Origin: Bacteroidales bacterium
GTDB taxonomy: Bacteria; Bacteroidota; Bacteroidia; Bacteroidales; GCA-2748055
Reading direction: 5' to 3'
DNA: 64,000 nt
Assembly (NCBI GenBank): GCA_040880545.1
Contig: JBBDIE010000158.1
Span: 9,358 to 73,357 of the forward strand
This document shows, in pieces, positions 1 through 8,077 of this stretch. The notes below the pieces were generated by a model that was not told the DNA's origin, searched no databases, and saw nothing but the letters and a program-made list of their open reading frames with translations. A program made the position numbers and the translations under genes. Every line of letters begins with the position of its first letter. The first letter of the stretch is position 1.

Positions 1-7
1 TAAGTGG

Positions 8-409
8 CTATTCCTGGAATCTTACTTTCAAGCAAAGTCCTGCTTGAAAATCAGTATTTAATTGAAAATGATTTAGAACTGCAAATGGTTCCAAAGAGAT
101 TTTAATACTGGAATGTTTTAAGTCTCTCCACGCAAGATTATTGACTTTCACAACACGACTAGCATCAATGGAGGACCAAATTGTTGTTACTAAATAGCCG
201 GTAAGGCCAGATAAAGCTAAAATTCTACCTACATCATAATTTGATAGCGCTATGTTAAATCCTATTGGGAATAGGCTAATGCTACCTGCTGCAACTCCAA
301 GAAAGGTAAATCCTCTTTTGTATTCGTCAGTATGTATTTGGCCTAATCCTGGAATGAATAAGGATAATGCTGCAATTTCAAATGGATGGTATTTCAAAAA
401 GATTGTCAA
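8..409 (-). CDS. hypothetical small membrane protein
   Basis: 133-codon ORF starting 8 nt after the lysS stop. It initiates at TTG and has no in-frame ATG. Several hydrophobic helices and an FIPGLGQI motif are common in small Bacteroidota membrane proteins. Function unknown. Confidence 0.4.
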   Translation of the reverse strand: MTIFLKYHPFEIAALSLFIPGLGQIHTDEYKRGFTFLGVAAGSISLFPIGFNIALSNYDVGRILALSGLTGYLVTTIWSSIDASRVVKVNNLAWRDLKHSSIKISLEPFAVLNHFQLNTDFQAGLCLKVRFQE

Positions 410-416
410 CTATATG

Positions 417-2237
417 TTATACCAAAGATACAAACAACCCCTCCTCCGTCTTCTCCACCTTCGCCAGATCCTTTGCCCGCAATCCTTTGAGCGCGGTATC
501 CCACTTCTTGTTTGAGAGGCCAGTCTGGGCTTTAAGCTCGTTCAGATCGACGGGTGTTTTTTCTTTCAGAAGGTTCAACACCAGCTTTTCTTCATTGGTT
601 AGATCTGCATATTCTTCCGATACCTCAGGCAGTTTGCCCTCTTGCTCATTGTTTTTTGCCTCCTGCCTGGCCTCCGAAGCCTTGGGGGAGGCGGCCCCAT
701 CACTCTCACTCTCACTTTTCACTCTGCTTTTCTCTGGCTTCATCTGCGGGAAAAACAACACATCCTGTATACTGGTATTGTTGGTCATCAGCATGGCCAG
801 CCGGTCCATGCCCATGCCCATACCACTGGTGGGGGGCATGCCGTATTCCAATGCCCGTACAAAGTCCATGTCAATGAACATCGCCTCATCATCGCCCTTT
901 TCAGAGAGTTTTAACTGCTCCCTGAACCGTTCGTACTGGTCAATGGGATCGTTCAGCTCTGAATAGGCATTACAGATCTCCTTGCCATTGATCATGAGTT
1001 CAAAGCGTTCAGTAAGTTCCGGATTGTCTCTGTGCTTTTTGCAGAGGGGAGACATCTCCACCGGGTAATCGGTAATAAATGTGGGTTGAATATAATGGGG
1101 TTCACATTGCTCTCCAAAGATCTCATCGATCAGCTTGCCCTTGCCCATGGCAGGATCGGTCTCAATGCCCAACTCTTTGCAGATCTCACGCAATTCTGTT
1201 TCAGTTTTGCCCGTAATATCAAACCCGGTAAATTCCCTGATGGAATCGGTCATGGTAATGCGTTTGAAAGGACGTTTGAAATCAATCTCCTTGTCGCCCA
1301 GTTTCACACTGGTTATTCCATGCAGGTCCAGCGCCACCTTTTCGATCATCTCTTCAGTAAAGTCCATCATCCAGTTGTAGTCCTTGTAGGCCACGTAAAT
1401 TTCCATCACCGTGAATTCCGGGTTGTGGGTCCGGTCCATTCCCTCGTTACGGAAATCCTTGGAGAACTCATAGACACCGTCGTACCCCCCTACAATCAGC
1501 CTTTTCAGGTACAATTCGTTGGCAATTCGCAGGTATAATGGTATGTCTAGTGCGTTGTGGTGTGTTTTGAACGGACGCGCCGCAGCCCCGCCGGGGATTG
1601 GCTGCAATACAGGTGTTTCCACCTCCAGGTACCCTTTGCTGTTGAACAGTTCCCTGAGAGAATTGTATATCTGCGTCCTTTTTCTGAAGACTTCCCGTAC
1701 ATCCGGATTCACTACCAGGTCCACATAACGCTGCCTGTAACGGAATTCCGGATCGGACACCGCATGGTAGGTCTTGCCATCCTTCTCCTTTACAATGGGC
1801 AATGGACGGATGGACTTGCTCAGTACCGTGATCTCCTCCACGTGCACAGAAATTTCACCCATCTGTGTTCTGAAGGCAAAGCCCCTGATGCCAATGAAGT
1901 CGCCAATGTCAAGTAATTTCTTGAATACGGTATTGTACATGGTTTTGTCCTCTTCCGGACAAATATCATCCCTGCGCAGGTAGACCTGTATGCGTCCCGA
2001 CTCATCCTGTATCTCTGCAAAGGAGGCACTCCCCATGATCCTGCGACTCATGATCCTTCCGGCAAGGGTGATGCCCTTAAGTGTCGCTTCCTCTGTGTCG
2101 AATTTTGACTTGACTTCAGCTGATCCGTGAGAAACTTCATAAGCGGCAGCAGGGTAGGGGTCTATACCGAGTTTGCGGATCTCTTCCAGTGAGTGTCTGC
2201 GTATTTGTTGCTGTTCGGAAAGGTCTGAGTGCGTCAT
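417..2237 (-). CDS. lysS: lysine--tRNA ligase (class II) with a ~100-aa C-terminal extension
   Basis: 606 aa. Class II aaRS motif 2 [15 protein letters not shown] and motif 3 [12 protein letters not shown] are present, with an N-terminal OB-type anticodon-binding region. ATG start. Confidence 0.95.
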
Positions 2238-2266
2238 TGTTATAACGTATAATTCAAAAGTTTGGG

Positions 2267-2274
2267 CAAAGATA
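2267..2274 (-). promoter_or_regulatory. candidate Bacteroidota -7 promoter box (TATCTTTG) for lysS
   Basis: Exact match to the TAnnTTTG consensus on the minus strand, 30 nt upstream of the lysS ATG. Confidence 0.45.
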
Positions 2275-2499
2275 GATAAAAGGGGGTAAAGTGCCTAAAG
2301 GGTTACAATACTTAAATGACTGCAATCTCTGGCCTGCTTTACTTTCCAATAACTGGTTTGAGGAATTCAGGTGAGTGACAAGGAATTCTAACTTTTAAAT
2401 TGCTGAAAAACAGGTGAACAGATATTAATGCTTGGTTGTTATACAGCTACCATTCAACCAGACGTTTTTTGAAATAATGTTTCACTAAAATCAGATGCT

Positions 2500-3090
2500 A
2501 TGAAAAAATTCATGTTTTTATTTGGAGTAGTAATGCTTGCAGCTCTTATGGGTTGCGAAAAGCAGGTTGTGGATCAGGATCCGCTGAACGAAAACGCTGC
2601 GGTTGATTCACAGAACAGTTTGTTAAAAGCCGGTCATTCCGGTATGAGCGCCACAGCTGTAATGCAAAATTTCCGGGCGCAATTGTCGGGCTTGAACGAG
2701 GTTCCATCGAATGATTCCCGTGCCCGGGGAGAGGCTGTATTTATGTATGATGCAGGTATGGACGCGGTTAGCTACAAGCTGATTGTTGCCAACCTGGAGA
2801 ACATTAGAATGGCTCATATCCACGCCGCACCGGCAGGTGTCAACGGAGGCGTGGTTGCATGGCTGTATCCCGCTTCACCACCGCCAAGTCTAATTGAAGG
2901 GGCAACCAGCGGAATACTTGCTGAAGGAGTAATCACCGCAGACCAATTGGTTGGTTCCATGGCAGGAATGTCCATTTCGGACCTGGTTGACTTGATGAAT
3001 TCCGAAGAGGTGTATGTTAACATTCATACAAATCAGTTTCCCGGTGGAGAGATACGCGGCCAGATTTCAATGAATAAAGGCATGCATTAA
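2500..3090 (+). CDS. CHRD domain-containing lipoprotein
   Basis: 196 aa. Signal peptide with lipobox (AALMGC). The LSGLNEVP...GEAVF...AHIHAAPAGVNGGVV...VNIHT...GEIRGQI pattern is typical of CHRD domains. Confidence 0.7.
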   Translation: MKKFMFLFGVVMLAALMGCEKQVVDQDPLNENAAVDSQNSLLKAGHSGMSATAVMQNFRAQLSGLNEVPSNDSRARGEAVFMYDAGMDAVSYKLIVANLENIRMAHIHAAPAGVNGGVVAWLYPASPPPSLIEGATSGILAEGVITADQLVGSMAGMSISDLVDLMNSEEVYVNIHTNQFPGGEIRGQISMNKGMH

Positions 3091-3145
3091 TTACCAGCTC
3101 CAGCAATTAACTATAGCACCTGACAGTTTACTGTTTAACATTATG

Positions 3146-3192
3146 AGCATCACTTTGCAGATGAAACTGCATTGTGGTGCTTTTTTTTTTTT
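3146..3192 (+). terminator. rho-independent terminator after the CHRD gene
   Basis: 15-nt arms (agcatcactttgcag / ctgcattgtggtgct) pair at 13 of 15 positions with a 6-nt loop, followed by a T12 run at 3181-3192. Confidence 0.75.
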
Positions 3193-3248
3193 GTTTCAAA
3201 AATTCTGGTTTTCAACCGATATTTGGAAGGTTCAACACATTAACTGTA

Positions 3249-3311
3249 GGAGTACTTGGAGTACTTGGAGTACTTGGAGTACTTGGAGTACTTGGAGTAC
3301 TTGGAGTACTT
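3249..3311 (+). repeat. tandem array of 7 perfect copies of GGAGTACTT (5-prime arm of an inverted pair)
   Basis: Direct reading gives 7 x 9 nt with no variants, 70 nt upstream of the four-helix-bundle ORF. Confidence 0.95.
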
Positions 3312-3380
3312 AGGGAGCTAGTGCTGGAAGTGGTTGATGTGATTGAAAATCTTGCTTCTTAACTAATTTATATCGAAATT

Positions 3381-3743
3381 ATGAATAATAAGGAGTTCGG
3401 GAAGCGGTTGGAACAGCGGACGAAGGTATTTGCAATTGAGATTATCAGACTTTCTGCAAAATTACCTGAAACTATAGAATATAGGGTAATTCGATATCAA
3501 ATGACAAAGTCTGGTAGTAGTGTGGCTGCAAATTACAGGGAAGCCAACATGTCAAGGAGTAAGGTTGATTTTTACCATAAGATTAGGGTTTGCGTGACGG
3601 AAGCTAGTGAAACTTCCTTATGGCTTGAAATCATCAATGAATTGAAAGATATGGAGCAGGGTGAACTAAATAAAATTTTGGCCGAATCAGATGAACTACT
3701 GTCCATCTTTATATCGATTTCCAATAATTTAAGAAAAAACTAA
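3381..3743 (+). CDS. four-helix-bundle protein (23S rRNA intervening-sequence protein family)
   Basis: 120 aa. Core QMTKSGSSVAANYREANMSRSKVDFYHKIRVCVTEASETSLWLEI matches the family signature (S-x-x-aNi-EG...df..fl...S..E). ATG start. Confidence 0.85.
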   Translation: MNNKEFGKRLEQRTKVFAIEIIRLSAKLPETIEYRVIRYQMTKSGSSVAANYREANMSRSKVDFYHKIRVCVTEASETSLWLEIINELKDMEQGELNKILAESDELLSIFISISNNLRKN

Positions 3744-3778
3744 ACACTTTGAAGCACCTCAAAGACCTGTAGTCCTTT

Positions 3779-3832
3779 AAGTACTTTAAGTACTCCAAGT
3801 ACTCCAAGTATTTTAAGTACTCCTCAAACTAA
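3779..3832 (+). repeat. tandem array of 6 copies of AAGTACTCC-type 9-mers (3-prime arm, reverse complement of the upstream array)
   Basis: Units are AAGTACTTT x2, AAGTACTCC x2, AAGTATTTT and AAGTACTCC. AAGTACTCC is the exact reverse complement of GGAGTACTT. A degenerate extra unit lies at 3770-3778. Confidence 0.95.
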
Positions 3833-3869
3833 TAGCCGGATACAACACCCTAAAGATCGTCAATTATAC

Positions 3870-3877
3870 TAAATTTG
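3870..3877 (+). promoter_or_regulatory. candidate -7 promoter box (TAAATTTG) for recJ
   Basis: Exact TAnnTTTG match 22 nt upstream of the recJ ATG. Confidence 0.45.
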
Positions 3878-3899
3878 TAGTAATTCTGAATGGGAAAGA

Positions 3900-5615
3900 A
3901 TGGAGAAAAACTGGGTCATAAAATCGCAGGGTGCTGAAGCTGAAGTGCTTGCTCTTAGCAGGTCGCTGGCGGTGAATAAAGTTTTGTCTAATTTACTTGT
4001 TCAGCGGGGAATTCACACATTCGAGGCGGCCAGGGTATTTTTTCGTCCGGAGCTTAGTCAGTTGCACGACCCCTTCCTGATGAAAGACATGGATGTGGCT
4101 GTAGAGCGAATCATGGCGGCCATAAAAAGTGATGAATCGGTGATGGTGTATGGTGACTATGATGTGGATGGGACCACCGCAGTGGCATTGATGTACTCAT
4201 TTTTGAAGGACCATTTGAAAAATCTCGATTATTATATTCCTGACCGGTATAGCGAAGGATATGGCGTATCCACTAAAGGGATCGATTATGCTGATGAGAA
4301 GGGGCACCGCATGATCATCGCACTTGATTGCGGGATAAAAGCTGTGGATAAGGTGGCATACGCCAGGTCGAAAGGCATTGATTTCATAATCTGCGACCAT
4401 CATACACCCGGGGGACAACTCCCGGAAGCGGTGGCAGTACTTGATCCAAAAAGGGCAGATTGCAATTATCCATATAAGGAACTCTCGGGATGTGGGGTTG
4501 GATTTAAGTTGATTCAGGCGCTTGCCCAGGCCATGGGGATTGAATTTGAAACCATTACGCACCTGCTGGACCTGGTTGTGGTAAGTATAGCATCCGATAT
4601 TGTTCCCATTAATGGGGAGAACAGGGTACTGGCTTTCCATGGGTTACAAAAATTAGCATATTCACCCCGAAAGGGACTTGAAGCAATCAAAAATGTGGCA
4701 GGATTTAGTGGAAATGATATTACCATTGAGGAGATCGTATTTAAGATCGGTCCGCGACTGAACGCTGCAGGCAGAATGGAGTCAGGTCGAACAGCAGTGG
4801 AGTTACTGGTAAGCGAGGATATGGACCAGGCGATGACCATCAGTAAAAACATCAACAATATCAATATCGAACGACGTGATGTGGACACCACCATTACCCG
4901 CCAGGCAGTGGAAATGATTCAAAAAGACAAGGAGATGCAGTTGCAGAAATCCACGGTATTATATAATCCTGAGTGGCACAAGGGAGTGATCGGGATCGTG
5001 GCTTCACGCCTGATGGACCATTACTACAGGCCAACGATTATTCTGACCAAATCAAATGGCCTGGCCACGGGCTCGGCACGGTCGGTGAATGGATTCGATC
5101 TTTACCAGGCCATTGAATCATGCAGCGACTTACTGGAGAACTTTGGTGGGCATAAATATGCAGCCGGGCTCACGATGAAAGTGAACAATATTAAGCCTTT
5201 TACAAAACGATTCGAAGAATATATTCATGATAATATTGATGCAGATCAGCTGATACCGGTTGTGGAGATTGACACTGAATTGCAGTTGGGTGAAATTGAT
5301 GATAAGTTCGTACGGGTGTTGAAACAATTCAGTCCGTTCGGACCGGAAAACATGGCTCCTGTTTTTTTTACTGAGAATGTTTCTGATAACGGGATGGGTA
5401 AAAGGGTTGGAACCGAGGGAGACCATTTAAAGTTAAACCTTGTTCAGGAGGAGAATCCGTACAAAGTTTATCCGGCCATCGCCTTTCAGAAAGGTAAAAT
5501 GTTCGAACAGATCGCAGAAGGCAAATCGTTCGATATCTGTTTCTCGGTCGAGGAGAACGAATACAGGGGACGCAGAACAATCCAGCTCAATGTGCGGGAC
5601 CTGAAGTTTGACTGA
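3900..5615 (+). CDS. recJ: single-stranded-DNA-specific exonuclease RecJ
   Basis: 571 aa. DHH-family motifs GDYDVDGTT, LDCG, ICDHHTP and the DHHA1 motif GGHKYAAG are present. Confidence 0.95.
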   Translation: MEKNWVIKSQGAEAEVLALSRSLAVNKVLSNLLVQRGIHTFEAARVFFRPELSQLHDPFLMKDMDVAVERIMAAIKSDESVMVYGDYDVDGTTAVALMYSFLKDHLKNLDYYIPDRYSEGYGVSTKGIDYADEKGHRMIIALDCGIKAVDKVAYARSKGIDFIICDHHTPGGQLPEAVAVLDPKRADCNYPYKELSGCGVGFKLIQALAQAMGIEFETITHLLDLVVVSIASDIVPINGENRVLAFHGLQKLAYSPRKGLEAIKNVAGFSGNDITIEEIVFKIGPRLNAAGRMESGRTAVELLVSEDMDQAMTISKNINNINIERRDVDTTITRQAVEMIQKDKEMQLQKSTVLYNPEWHKGVIGIVASRLMDHYYRPTIILTKSNGLATGSARSVNGFDLYQAIESCSDLLENFGGHKYAAGLTMKVNNIKPFTKRFEEYIHDNIDADQLIPVVEIDTELQLGEIDDKFVRVLKQFSPFGPENMAPVFFTENVSDNGMGKRVGTEGDHLKLNLVQEENPYKVYPAIAFQKGKMFEQIAEGKSFDICFSVEENEYRGRRTIQLNVRDLKFD

Positions 5616-5738
5616 TACGGAGCCTTTCAAGCACTTTTTTATGACTGTTGCCATACGAGAAAAATAATAATAATACACCATTTTTATTCATCCACAATAT
5701 TTGTAATTTCCCTTCCTTAAATCAAACTAAATTACATC

Positions 5739-6059
5739 ATGAAAACTTCAAGTATACGATCCCTGTCAACAGTGACGTTAATAGCTGTCTTGTTCATTAT
5801 TATAATTTCCGGCTGTTCTAATTACGAAGATATTACAGCATGTGTTCAAGGAAAAGTTTATGGCTTCTGGAACGGGCTATGGCACGGAATTATCGCACCT
5901 ATCGATCTTATTGCCATGATTTGGCGGGAAGATGTAACAGTATATGCCCCTAATAACAATGGTATTTGGTATGCCTTTGGTTTTGTACTTGGTAGTGGGG
6001 GATGGGGATTTTTAGGAAGTAAAGGAGCAAAGCAAGCAAGAAGAAAGAGGGAAAGATAG
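5739..6059 (+). CDS. hypothetical small lipoprotein/membrane protein
   Basis: 106 aa. Lipobox IIISGC, a Gly/Trp-rich hydrophobic C-terminal half and a basic tail. No recognisable family. Confidence 0.45.
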   Translation: MKTSSIRSLSTVTLIAVLFIIIISGCSNYEDITACVQGKVYGFWNGLWHGIIAPIDLIAMIWREDVTVYAPNNNGIWYAFGFVLGSGGWGFLGSKGAKQARRKRER

Positions 6060-6076
6060 GATTTGTTTTTCAAGCT

Positions 6077-8077
6077 TCACAGATCAAGCTGCAGTTGTAA
6101 TTCCGCATCCCAGATCTCATTTCCCGGCCGTACATCATACCCTGATCCTGTTTCCCATCTATGGGAGTAGCGGGTATAGCCTCCCTTGGCGCGGATGGTA
6201 ATACTGCCGGATATCCTGGCCGAGAATGTGAACACATTTCGAAGGCCGGTTCCATACCATGCGGGAAAGAGAAAGCTGTAACGGACCCCGGGCTCATAAG
6301 TATAGATCCGGTTTCCCCAATGGTTGGTATCAAAAATCAGGAACCTGTATGTGAAGCGAAATCCCTCCTGTGTATTAACTGTTACCTGTTCATAGAAAAG
6401 TTTACCTCTGTAACTCGCATTTTCTGCCAGGAGTGTTGCATATTCAAACCGGCCGGAAATTTTGAGCTTTTCAGTAAGGTCATACCTGTATTGCAATCGG
6501 TACCTGGTTTGTTGGTTGACCATGTAATTTCCATTTCCTGGTTGTCCCTCCTTAAGAAGTTCATGATGGGTGCGTCCCGTAAATCGGAATTCCACGATAG
6601 GCCCCTCGCTGAATTCGTAACTGAAACGTATGCTGTTCCGGATGTTGAATCCCGGCAAATCTGAATTATGGCGTGTTTTAATGATTCCTGAAAAATCTGA
6701 ATTAAGATAGATCCGTGCATATTTAAAGGGTGTGGTTACCAGTTCCACATTAATTCCTGATTCATTCTCCGGGTCGCCTCCTGCACCGTAGGCGTTTGGG
6801 GTAAATCCTGCAAAGTCCGGTTGGTATCTTCTTATGGATATGCTGGCAGATAATGCTGGATTAATTGCTAAAGTTGTACCAATCAGCAATGCATATCTGG
6901 CATCGTTGCCCAGGGCTGCTTCACCAAAAACTTCATAATTGGTTCCGAATCCAACTCCATAGAGGGAGATTCCAGTTCTTTGTGAATACACCGGATCCAT
7001 GGCTCCGATGGAATCCAGACCTCTGTTTGACAGTCCCAGTTTTGAATAGGTGTACGAAATTCCCGTGTAAAGCCGTTGAGCCGATCTGTTGATCGAAAAG
7101 CCTGTAGTGTGCTGGTTTGCCAGACCAAAACCATTTCTTTCGGTGGATGTTCTGTGTAATCCTGTTTTCCTTATCTGTTCGAACAGATCCGTTTTCAACG
7201 CAAAGTTATGGAATGATAAATCCTCTGGCTTGAAGGACCAGAAAAGGTCGCAGGTCCATTTTTTCATTACTGCTTCCGTATATATTCCCCTGTAGTAGTC
7301 ATACTCCATGGACGATGAGAATGGTTTTGCATAAGAGCGTCTGTAGCCATCCAGGTTCACTCCTGTTCCGTTGCTGTTGAATCCAAGGCCATGAACCAGG
7401 CCCATTCCACGGTGGATGCGGTAATTTCCCCAAATAACACTATTAATAATGCCTTGTGGTTTGTATGCAATGTAACCCGTGAAATGTTCCGGTCTCTGTT
7501 TGTTCAGCCATATTTCTCCCCGGTCCTTTTCAAAGGCACCTCCTATTGTCCACTTCCGGCCCGTATCATATTTTAGTCTGCCACTCACTTTGAATGGAGA
7601 ACCCGGGTAGCGGGAAGGGGTTGAATCCCGGGACTGAAATCCTTGTGCATAGGGAAACTGGTTGGATACATTGGACAGTAACATCCCCTTTCCCCTTTGA
7701 TACTTATCCGGAATTTTGTCATTTGAAAATGTTACCAGCGGAACAATCTGCTTCAAAAACCCCACTGTAAATCCGGGAATGACAGCAAGTTCATAGATGG
7801 TATGGAAATGGCCGTACTTTTCCCTCTGTTTCAGTATTCCATAAACCTGGAAAGGTGTGAATAATCCGGTTGCATTCAGTTCACTTTCAGTGGCGAAATT
7901 CAGATTCAGGGGATACTTTGTAAGTTCTTCGATAACTTCATACAGATGTTCGGTATCGGATGTGTTCCCGTTTTCGATGATCTCACTGGCAAGGTCCTCA
8001 AAAAGGGATAATTCCTGGCTGAAGCTGGTAATCCACGAAACAATTGGAATTAATATGAGCGCAATAAATTTTTTCAT
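6077..8077 (-). CDS. helix-hairpin-helix (ComEA-like) domain fused to a predicted outer-membrane beta-barrel
   Basis: 666 aa. Signal peptide. The N-terminal LNLNFATESELNATGLFTPFQVYGILKQREKYGHFHTIYELAVIPGF matches the ComEA-type HhH pattern. The remaining ~550 aa has alternating aromatic/Gly beta-strand composition. The ATG overlaps the upstream gene stop (ATGA). Confidence 0.65.
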   Translation of the reverse strand: MKKFIALILIPIVSWITSFSQELSLFEDLASEIIENGNTSDTEHLYEVIEELTKYPLNLNFATESELNATGLFTPFQVYGILKQREKYGHFHTIYELAVIPGFTVGFLKQIVPLVTFSNDKIPDKYQRGKGMLLSNVSNQFPYAQGFQSRDSTPSRYPGSPFKVSGRLKYDTGRKWTIGGAFEKDRGEIWLNKQRPEHFTGYIAYKPQGIINSVIWGNYRIHRGMGLVHGLGFNSNGTGVNLDGYRRSYAKPFSSSMEYDYYRGIYTEAVMKKWTCDLFWSFKPEDLSFHNFALKTDLFEQIRKTGLHRTSTERNGFGLANQHTTGFSINRSAQRLYTGISYTYSKLGLSNRGLDSIGAMDPVYSQRTGISLYGVGFGTNYEVFGEAALGNDARYALLIGTTLAINPALSASISIRRYQPDFAGFTPNAYGAGGDPENESGINVELVTTPFKYARIYLNSDFSGIIKTRHNSDLPGFNIRNSIRFSYEFSEGPIVEFRFTGRTHHELLKEGQPGNGNYMVNQQTRYRLQYRYDLTEKLKISGRFEYATLLAENASYRGKLFYEQVTVNTQEGFRFTYRFLIFDTNHWGNRIYTYEPGVRYSFLFPAWYGTGLRNVFTFSARISGSITIRAKGGYTRYSHRWETGSGYDVRPGNEIWDAELQLQLDL

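Follow-up and report, generated by a model that had tools for sequence, protein, structure and literature searches.

The DNA considered here is a 64-kb stretch of contig JBBDIE010000158.1 from a Bacteroidales bacterium, which we call the window. Between a CHRD gene and recJ lies a small open reading frame (ORF) flanked on both sides by tandem copies of a 9-mer, the downstream copies being inverted relative to the upstream ones. The feature is a member of a widespread class of cassettes in which a gene for a four-helix-bundle (4HB) protein is bracketed by inverted arrays of short tandem repeats. The parts of the window copy are as follows.

3249..3311, + strand: 5′ arm, seven perfect head-to-tail GGAGTACTT units (direct read-out; Tandem Repeats Finder score 126)
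3381..3743, + strand: gene for a 120-amino-acid (aa) 4HB protein, PF05635/TIGR02436 (profile matches)
3779..3823, − strand: clean part of the 3′ arm, five units that are the reverse complement of the 5′ unit (in-register reading)
3752..3778, − strand: inner part of the 3′ arm, three decayed units (in-register reading; inverted repeats I2 and I5 extend to 3752)
3312..3380, + strand: spacer from the 5′ arm to the ATG, with decayed units and no TAnnTTTG motif; the stem of the minimum-free-energy fold runs on into it
3239..3248, + strand: outer extension of the left arm, partially complementary to 3824-3833 and paired in the minimum-free-energy fold
3824..3833, + strand: outer extension of the right arm, no repeat unit

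The original prediction, made from the sequence of the window, placed the ORF in the family of 23S rRNA intervening sequence (IVS) proteins and four-helix bundles, and both profiles agree above their cut-offs. Pfam PF05635 scores 57.7 bits (cut-off 33.8) over profile positions 7-103 of 106, and TIGR02436 scores 74.4 bits (cut-off 24) over positions 2-108 of 109. Homologues of the protein at 57-66% identity come mainly from Bacteroidales metagenome-assembled genomes (MAGs). A profile built from close relatives matches PDB 2RLD, a solved relative with five chains, at E = 2e-24, which is a link at the level of sequence only. The family motif, quoted as GxxRxxxSxxxNxxE in PMC3936711, appears in the window protein as Q40-x2-K43-x3-S47-x3-N51-x2-E54, with the spacing kept and G and R replaced by Q and K; the S, N, and E are invariant in alignment A1. 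The family is large, with 14,548 clusters at 50% identity (E up to 0.001). Searches of Pfam, PADLOC, and PHROGs place the protein in no DNA- or RNA-binding family beyond its own family. Assignment as a defense gene was rejected, PADLOC giving only a marginal match (E = 0.009), as was assignment as a phage gene, with no PHROGs match and with close relatives scarce on viral contigs; matches there number five, all distant, and phage records contribute one.

The seven perfect GGAGTACTT units upstream of the 120-codon ORF are present as predicted. In the register of the repeat family the unit reads AGTACTTGG, a minor variant of the family unit set (12 occurrences). The 5′ array ends 69 nt before the ATG, and 35 nt separate the stop codon from the start of the reverse-complement array. 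That array had been described as six units at 3779-3832. The inverted array is real, but only five units are clean, ending at 3823; the supposed sixth, at 3824-3832, reads TCAAACTAA and is not a unit. Read in register, the clean units start at 3779 (AAGTACTTT), 3788 (AAGTACTCC), 3797 (AAGTACTCC), 3806 (AAGTATTTT), and 3815 (AAGTACTCC), so that AAGTACTTT occurs once and not twice as had been reported. The decayed units start at 3752 (AAGCACCTC), 3761 (AAAGACCTG), and 3770 (TAGTCCTTT). Within 3779-3823, all five deviations from AAGTACTCC are C-to-T changes that yield G-U pairs on the coding strand, in agreement with the predicted pattern, and the arms count 36 Watson-Crick, 5 sense-wobble, and 0 antisense-wobble pairs. 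The longer inverted repeat I1, with arms at 3239-3301 and 3771-3833, is 81% complementary. The window contains 10 exact copies of the 9-mer, every one inside the two arrays, against a chance expectation of ~0.5; with up to one mismatch there are 20 matches versus 9.2 ± 2.7 in shuffles. Neither tblastn nor a pattern search found a further copy of the gene or of an array in the window.

Array length is variable. The window matches a contig of MAG GCA_040903685.1, and a second assembly of the same organism and locus is 99.8% identical over 3.2 kb. The second assembly has 5 units rather than 7 in the 5′ array and 6 rather than 5 in the 3′ array (one extra AAGTACTCC), and these changes in unit number are the sole indels between both assemblies across the 3.2 kb. 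Array copy number changes in the manner of a variable-number tandem repeat. The likelier origin of the perfect GG array on the 5′ side is a minor variant that recently expanded by slippage, because the TT forms match the commonest ending in the family (TAA); the differences in unit number between the assemblies support this view.

Folding of the + strand RNA pairs the two arrays (−188.8 kcal/mol, z = −7.8), and the − strand RNA folds at −157.3 kcal/mol. The arms alone form 60 pairs, 9 of them G-U, with an energy of −84.9 kcal/mol in the sense strand versus −71.7 kcal/mol in the antisense strand. Folding thus predicts a long RNA stem enclosing the ORF, as originally proposed, with a length of ~60 bp. 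As single-stranded DNA, the region yields the same long stem (−78.6 kcal/mol).

The layout is not peculiar to the window. A scan of close relatives, with one genome per species, returned 80 loci whose proteins are 52-64% identical, and nearly all of them have short inverted repeats around the gene, with 9-mers such as AGTGCCTAA, AGTGCCTAG, AGTGACTAA, AGTGTCTAA, and AGTACTTAA. The full set comprises 84 cassettes from 81 genome loci in at least five phyla (Bacteroidota, Desulfobacterota, Planctomycetota, Acidobacteriota, and Gemmatimonadota). Most of these cassettes have inverted arrays drawn from one family of 7-, 9-, or 10-nt units (AGTGCCTAA and variants), and the window 9-mer belongs to its AGTGCCTAA/AGTACTTAA/AGTACTTGG set. 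Across phyla within the protein clade, the unit core is T-R-R-A-G-T plus a short variable spacer, and units vary within single arrays (GCC, GAC, GTC, ACT, and 10-mers). AGT-to-AGT spacings in the flanks are 9 nt in 43% of cases, 7 nt in 15%, and 10 nt in 9%, each against a background of ~2% (2.4% for 9 nt). With a threshold of at least five anchors, 165 arrays lie within 350 nt of a 4HB gene, versus 35 chains, many of them AT-rich chance occurrences, in the other 360 kb. At least four units are present on both sides in 58 of the 84 cassettes, and the two arms of a cassette are better pairing partners for each other than are the arms of other loci (median rank 14.5 of 58, p = 2e-5). The arrays sit close to the gene, with a median of 19 nt from array to ATG and 24 nt from stop to array, and frequently 0-2 nt. 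Among the longer examples, locus L022 has 12 perfect AGTGCCTAA units within a 14-anchor chain (3353-3470), and one cassette at L029 has 17 and 16 units on its two sides (2347-2500 and 2854-2990).

The cassettes are strongly oriented with respect to their neighbors. Co-orientation with both flanking genes (+,+) was found 61 times and opposition to both (−,−) twice, a ratio on which an invertible switch operating via the inverted arms was rejected. Median spacers to the flanking genes are 82 and 84 nt, and the flanks often look operon-like (ABC-transporter-like pairs), as judged from ORF size and not from Pfam. In 11 Flavobacteriaceae genomes from several genera, the cassette lies between the same 112-aa and 246-aa genes, indicating long vertical residence. 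The Bacteroidota −7 motif, TAnnTTTG, was sought within 150 nt upstream of the ATG and occurs in 1 of the 84 cassettes versus 10 on the control strand. It is absent upstream of the 4HB gene in the window, where a sigma-70 scan of the + strand also returned nothing. A promoter belonging to the cassette was rejected on the sigma-70 scan and the near-absence of the −7 motif, and the idea of a self-regulated transcript is not sustained, with no promoter motif before the gene and a terminator just upstream. Canonical 9-mers are more numerous in the 3′ arm than in the 5′ arm (208 versus 151; 40 loci versus 16, p = 0.006), which shows a direction-dependent constraint, and gene-less arrays are also polar relative to their neighbors (28 versus 12). 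Taken together, the biases in orientation, spacing, promoter motif, and arm composition fit a cassette that depends on host transcription rather than a strand-symmetric DNA element.

Distant relatives share the layout but not the repeat sequence. The distant set consists of 12 plasmid-borne 4HB genes at 29-40% identity (L217-L228), from Nostoc, Planktothrix, Dolichospermum, Gloeocapsa, Pseudanabaena, Anabaena, Chlorohelix, Bernardetia, Chondrinema, and Monoglobus. Short tandem repeats flank the gene at 11 of the 12 loci, mostly as inverted heptamers unrelated to the 9-mer. In one case, AATTCAA ×4 faces TTGAATT ×4 over 31 nt with 100% complementarity; others pair GTAATTC ×4 with GAATTAC ×4 or AGGTCGG with CCGACCT, or use CAGTNAA. 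The flanking arrays of Planktothrix L221 (1357-1480 and 1848-2030) are built of CCCCAAT and CGTAAAT heptamers, the former of which we take to be the classical cyanobacterial STRR1 heptamer. Viral contigs L230 and L233 have the same inverted-array layout, and the one phage record with a 4HB gene has no arrays. Ten of the 12 plasmid loci are co-oriented with both neighbors (+,+). These neighbors are often defense genes (DISARM drmD-MmeI, type I hsdS-hsdR, csx2-cas1, cas2-cas1, DUF1156-Swt1 HEPN, and helicase-methylase), which fits the earlier observation by Zhang et al. of 23S_rRNA_IVP genes wedged within cas operons (PMC3936711). Unit type tracks protein clade and not host phylum: among Cytophagales, distant proteins go with other units, whereas close proteins in Desulfobacterota and Planctomycetota go with AGTGNCTAA units.

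The arrays also occur without the gene. Scans for three AGTGCCTAR units returned 120 metagenome and 7 viral loci. Sequence on the inner side was long enough in 99 arrays, of which only 11 have a 4HB gene in that position and 88 are gene-less; for 48 of the 88, a reverse-oriented array lies 7-131 nt away, forming a hairpin. Gene-less hairpins are found beside cassettes at L043 (4166-4245), L063 (418-511), and L072 (886-991). In the metagenome loci (L082-L201), 29 of 128 arrays lie less than 450 nt from a sequence end, and many homologue-bearing contigs are ~1-3 kb long; the arrays probably break short-read assemblies.

Three further features mark the surroundings of the cassette in the window.

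3145..3192, + strand: intrinsic-terminator-like hairpin (3145-3182) and T-run after the CHRD gene (RNAfold)
3870..3877, + strand: recJ −7 box, TAAATTTG (motif scan; comparison with L209-L213)
2291..2299, + strand: solitary AGTGCCTAA unit beside the lysS promoter (comparison with L213)

The hairpin on the CHRD side (−21.4 kcal/mol) has a 14-pair interrupted stem followed by T12, and a simple terminator scan missed it because of its internal loop. The recJ −7 box is kept in recJ relatives that have no cassette, and it bounds the insertion on the right (at or before ~3842). With this hairpin and this box, the predicted position between the CHRD-gene terminator and the recJ promoter is upheld. The ORFs listed for window positions 1-8000 are lysS, CHRD, recJ, a small ORF (106 aa), and a 666-aa ORF; the CHRD and recJ products were identified by Pfam scan. 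Across the 64-kb window, no rRNA, tRNA, or any Rfam family reaches threshold, so the cassette, flanked by the CHRD gene and recJ, does lie outside rRNA as claimed. A known RNA family was rejected as an explanation, since Rfam gave no match above chance in the cassette itself and none in the whole window or in gene-less hairpins from 19 loci.

The site upstream of recJ is polymorphic among relatives, which fits the suggestion that the cassette is a mobile or formerly mobile module. In L209, L210, L214, and L215 (recJ 82-85% identical) and in L216 (74%), lysS and recJ are divergent, and neither the CHRD gene nor the cassette lies upstream of recJ. L213 (recJ 72%) has a 4HB cassette at this site. 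Its 5′ arm (2296-2460) alternates AGTGCCTAA and AGTTCATAG, two unit types with an 18-nt period, and its 3′ arm (2960-3010) holds the AGTTCATAG type only; therefore, the arms are just half complementary. L211 and L212 (recJ 80%) have a PF13366 (PDDEXK_3) gene there, after tandem CTTTGTGAAA repeats. About four CTTTGTGAAA-like tandem units stand before that gene, at 2490-2560 in L211 and at 1310-1362 in L212. Because such tandems precede the PF13366 gene, it may represent a second small-gene family that shares the habit of sitting behind short tandem repeats. The L213 cassette array begins at the place equivalent to the solitary unit of the window, and decayed versions of that unit are found at ~2782-2790 in L209 and ~2848-2856 in L210 (AGTGCCCAT and AGTGCCCAG). 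The solitary unit may be what is left of a lost cassette, or a seed from which an array could grow. Around the arms in the window there is no clear direct duplication (...TTAACTGT / CAAACTAA...), and the empty sites of the relatives are too diverged for exact junctions. The cassette contains no transposase or recombinase, the 4HB gene being the only ORF there.

The explanation we favor, at somewhat less than an even chance, is that the cassette is an IVS-like hitch-hiker whose repeat arms form a register-tolerant RNA stem that is cut by RNase III. The cassette would have no transcription of its own and would ride on a host transcript. Within that RNA, the two arrays could pair in any register, and the long duplex would loop out the ORF. 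On the model of rRNA intervening sequences, the duplex would then be cleaved by RNase III, freeing the cassette RNA from the cistrons on either side. A stem made of tandem units could be resized and regenerated by slippage. Processing by RNase III is a step drawn from the analogy, and the co-orientation and the lack of a promoter motif described above are observations that point to a host transcript.

Several results weigh against this explanation. The original prediction took the wobble-only variation in the window as a sign of selection on a coding-strand duplex. Selection on a sense RNA duplex should give a strand asymmetry of wobble pairs, and the family has none; three tests led us to reject the asymmetry as a family signal. 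For 76 cassettes taken with 150-nt flanks, the sense strand was better in 42 and the antisense strand in 34 (p = 0.18). Duplex energies of the arrays alone, calculated for 58 cassettes, were evenly split, 29 favoring the sense strand and 29 the antisense. Over the same number of cassettes, transitions gave 79 sense-wobble versus 77 antisense-wobble changes, and 74 versus 77 once the window was removed. The five changes in the window, all of the sense-wobble kind (5:0), are not independent because they rest on two variant units. The 9-mer sequence is kept across phyla within the protein clade, and a plain stem needs no such conservation. Among the 88 gene-less arrays, 26 have a well-complementary partner and 59 have no well-matched partner. 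In the window itself, AGTACT is a palindrome, so the RNA of the 5′ arm can form a fold of its own (−35.7 kcal/mol) that competes with the long-range stem. Moreover, with a strong terminator ahead of the cassette and a separate recJ promoter behind it, read-through of both arms is uncertain in this window. The missing wobble bias, the conserved unit sequence, and the poorly complementary gene-less pairs keep explanations at the level of DNA and of protein binding alive.

In the first of these, which we consider unlikely, the inverted arrays would form the termini of a mobile or recombining, non-autonomous module, and RNA pairing would be incidental. DNA hairpins or cruciforms, or portable homology arms acting as "landing pads," might move the 4HB gene between array hairpins and between genomes. 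The absence of a G-U strand bias counts in favor of a DNA element, and the long stem also forms in the DNA fold. Array hairpins free of the gene are common, as the counts of 88 of 99 gene-less arrays and of 48 with a nearby reverse array attest, and the site upstream of recJ is variable, being empty, occupied by a 4HB cassette (L213), or occupied by a PDDEXK_3 gene (L211 and L212). The same units accompany 53-60% identical proteins across five phyla, and the unit follows the protein clade. However, a strand-symmetric element should lack both the 61:2 orientation bias and the asymmetry between the 5′ and 3′ arms. The cassette encodes no transposase or recombinase, a target-site duplication is not evident in the window, and close relatives are rare on viral contigs. 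The conserved position in the 11 Flavobacteriaceae genomes is likewise at odds with a mobile DNA element.

The second alternative, to which we also assign a low probability, regards the arrays as iteron-like platforms on RNA or DNA, with multiple sites for the encoded, presumably pentameric 4HB protein. Such binding could serve autoregulation, transcript protection, or action in trans at gene-less arrays, and the complementarity of the arms would be a by-product of one unit serving in both orientations. The T-R-R-A-G-T core, conserved across phyla within one protein clade, is consistent with recognition by the protein, as is the use of wholly different units by protein clades at 30-40% identity. 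Gene-less pairs often share a unit family without complementarity. In addition, the homologous protein Avd is reported to act on structured RNA in a complex with a reverse transcriptase (bioRxiv 10.1101/2023.10.23.563531). Against this putative binding, the protein falls in no DNA- or RNA-binding family beyond its own in the three databases searched, and single arrays mix several forms of the unit. Joint inheritance of the gene and its arrays also accounts for the match of clade to unit without recognition.

A bolder proposal, which we regard as quite improbable, is that 4HB (S23p/Avd-like) genes and register-free tandem-repeat hairpins together make up a previously unrecognized self-propagating system. 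The protein would recognize its own unit or help to propagate it, seeding gene-less arrays through the genome and across phyla; such a system would also explain ORF-bearing rRNA intervening sequences and the origin of heptamer and nonamer arrays of the short tandemly repeated repetitive (STRR) type. Least probable of all, and in our judgment very unlikely, is that the arrays are functionless, slippage-prone STRR-type simple-sequence repeats (SSRs) in tolerant spacers with the gene associated by hitch-hiking, a view in line with copy numbers of 7 versus 5 and 5 versus 6 between 99.8%-identical assemblies, with the gene-less state of most arrays, and with similar heptamer arrays reported for Cyanobacteria, Xanthomonas, and Beggiatoaceae (PMC4692102, PMC4679880), but contradicted by an inverted, gene-bracketing layout in most close and 11 of 12 distant plasmid relatives despite differing units, by the concentration of arrays beside 4HB genes (165 versus 35), and by orientation biases not expected of neutral repeats.

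The cassette physically links three things of unknown function, namely S23p/4HB proteins, STRR/long-SSR repeats, and small 4HB genes inside operons. Operon-wedged 4HB genes are recurrently annotated, including in CRISPR-Cas, DISARM, and restriction-modification operons. If the arms are RNA-processing stems, the cassette would be an mRNA counterpart of the rRNA intervening sequences and could affect operon expression in many phyla. If instead the protein recognizes its own repeats, it would define a new kind of selfish element. Whichever explanation holds, cultured carriers such as Flavivirga, Tamlana, Seonamhaeicola, and Nostoc punctiforme make the question testable. Neither two consecutive units of the window 9-mer nor a link between the 4HB protein family and tandem repeats was found in the searchable literature.

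Among known systems, the Correia/NEMIS elements of Neisseria are intergenic inverted-repeat elements that are co-transcribed with their neighbors and whose hairpins are RNase III substrates. They have no ORF and no tandem units, and they possess defined terminal repeats and target duplications; the window cassette, in contrast, carries an ORF and is built from tandem units. Repetitive extragenic palindromic (REP) elements and bacterial interspersed mosaic elements (BIMEs) occur with genes for REP-associated tyrosine transposases (RAYTs) as REPtrons and REPINs, in which a gene is bracketed by inverted short elements that are also scattered gene-less in operon spacers. The window differs in that its protein is a 120-aa helical bundle and not a Y1 transposase, and in that its arms are tandem arrays and not single palindromes. 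The unit bears a loose resemblance to the DnaA box, the rRNA boxA, and the Haemophilus uptake sequence, to each of which it is a partial match. Avd of the diversity-generating retroelements belongs to the homologous 4HB family PF05635 (PMC10053308). The window appears to differ from the context of Avd, the ORF list for 1-8000 showing no reverse-transcriptase-like ORF, with only the CHRD and recJ products Pfam-scanned; a diversity-generating retroelement was judged improbable on that list, and no dedicated search for a reverse transcriptase or for template and variable repeats was made.

The function of STRR-type arrays has, to our knowledge, been unknown since 1990. The window arrays belong to this type by definition, being head-to-tail intergenic units within the 6-9-nt range whose copy number varies between assemblies. 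Two reports describe heptamer arrays of unknown function, with 70-75 convergent pairs in genomes of Xanthomonas (PMC4692102, PMC4679880). The repeats described there (Xanthomonas GGGAATC, PMC4692102; TAACTGA, PMC4679880) resemble the window arrays in their head-to-tail intergenic 7-9-nt units, often in convergent pairs, in strain-variable length, in patchy spread across phyla, and in unknown function. They differ from the 9-nt window unit in sequence, and term searches of both papers ("23S," "S23," "four helix," and "intervening") turned up no reference to the 4HB gene family.

The nearest counterpart is the rRNA IVS with an S23p ORF, as in Leptospira and Coxiella burnetii, whose protein is of the same family as that of the window cassette. 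An IVS lies inside a 23S rRNA gene (helix 25 or 45), whereas the window cassette lies between protein-coding genes and has a stem made wholly of tandem 9-mers. RNase III cleavage is demonstrated for the IVS and is a conjecture by analogy for the cassette. In the Coxiella IVS, the S23p ORF occupies the loop closed by a terminal stem of 28 bp, RNase III excises the element, and a variable number of GACAGAT heptamers stands beside the ATG (PMC4990558). The window cassette shows the same plan: terminal inverted repeats that make a long predicted stem with the ORF in the loop, an element co-directional within a presumed host transcription unit, and variable-number short tandem repeats adjoining the ORF.

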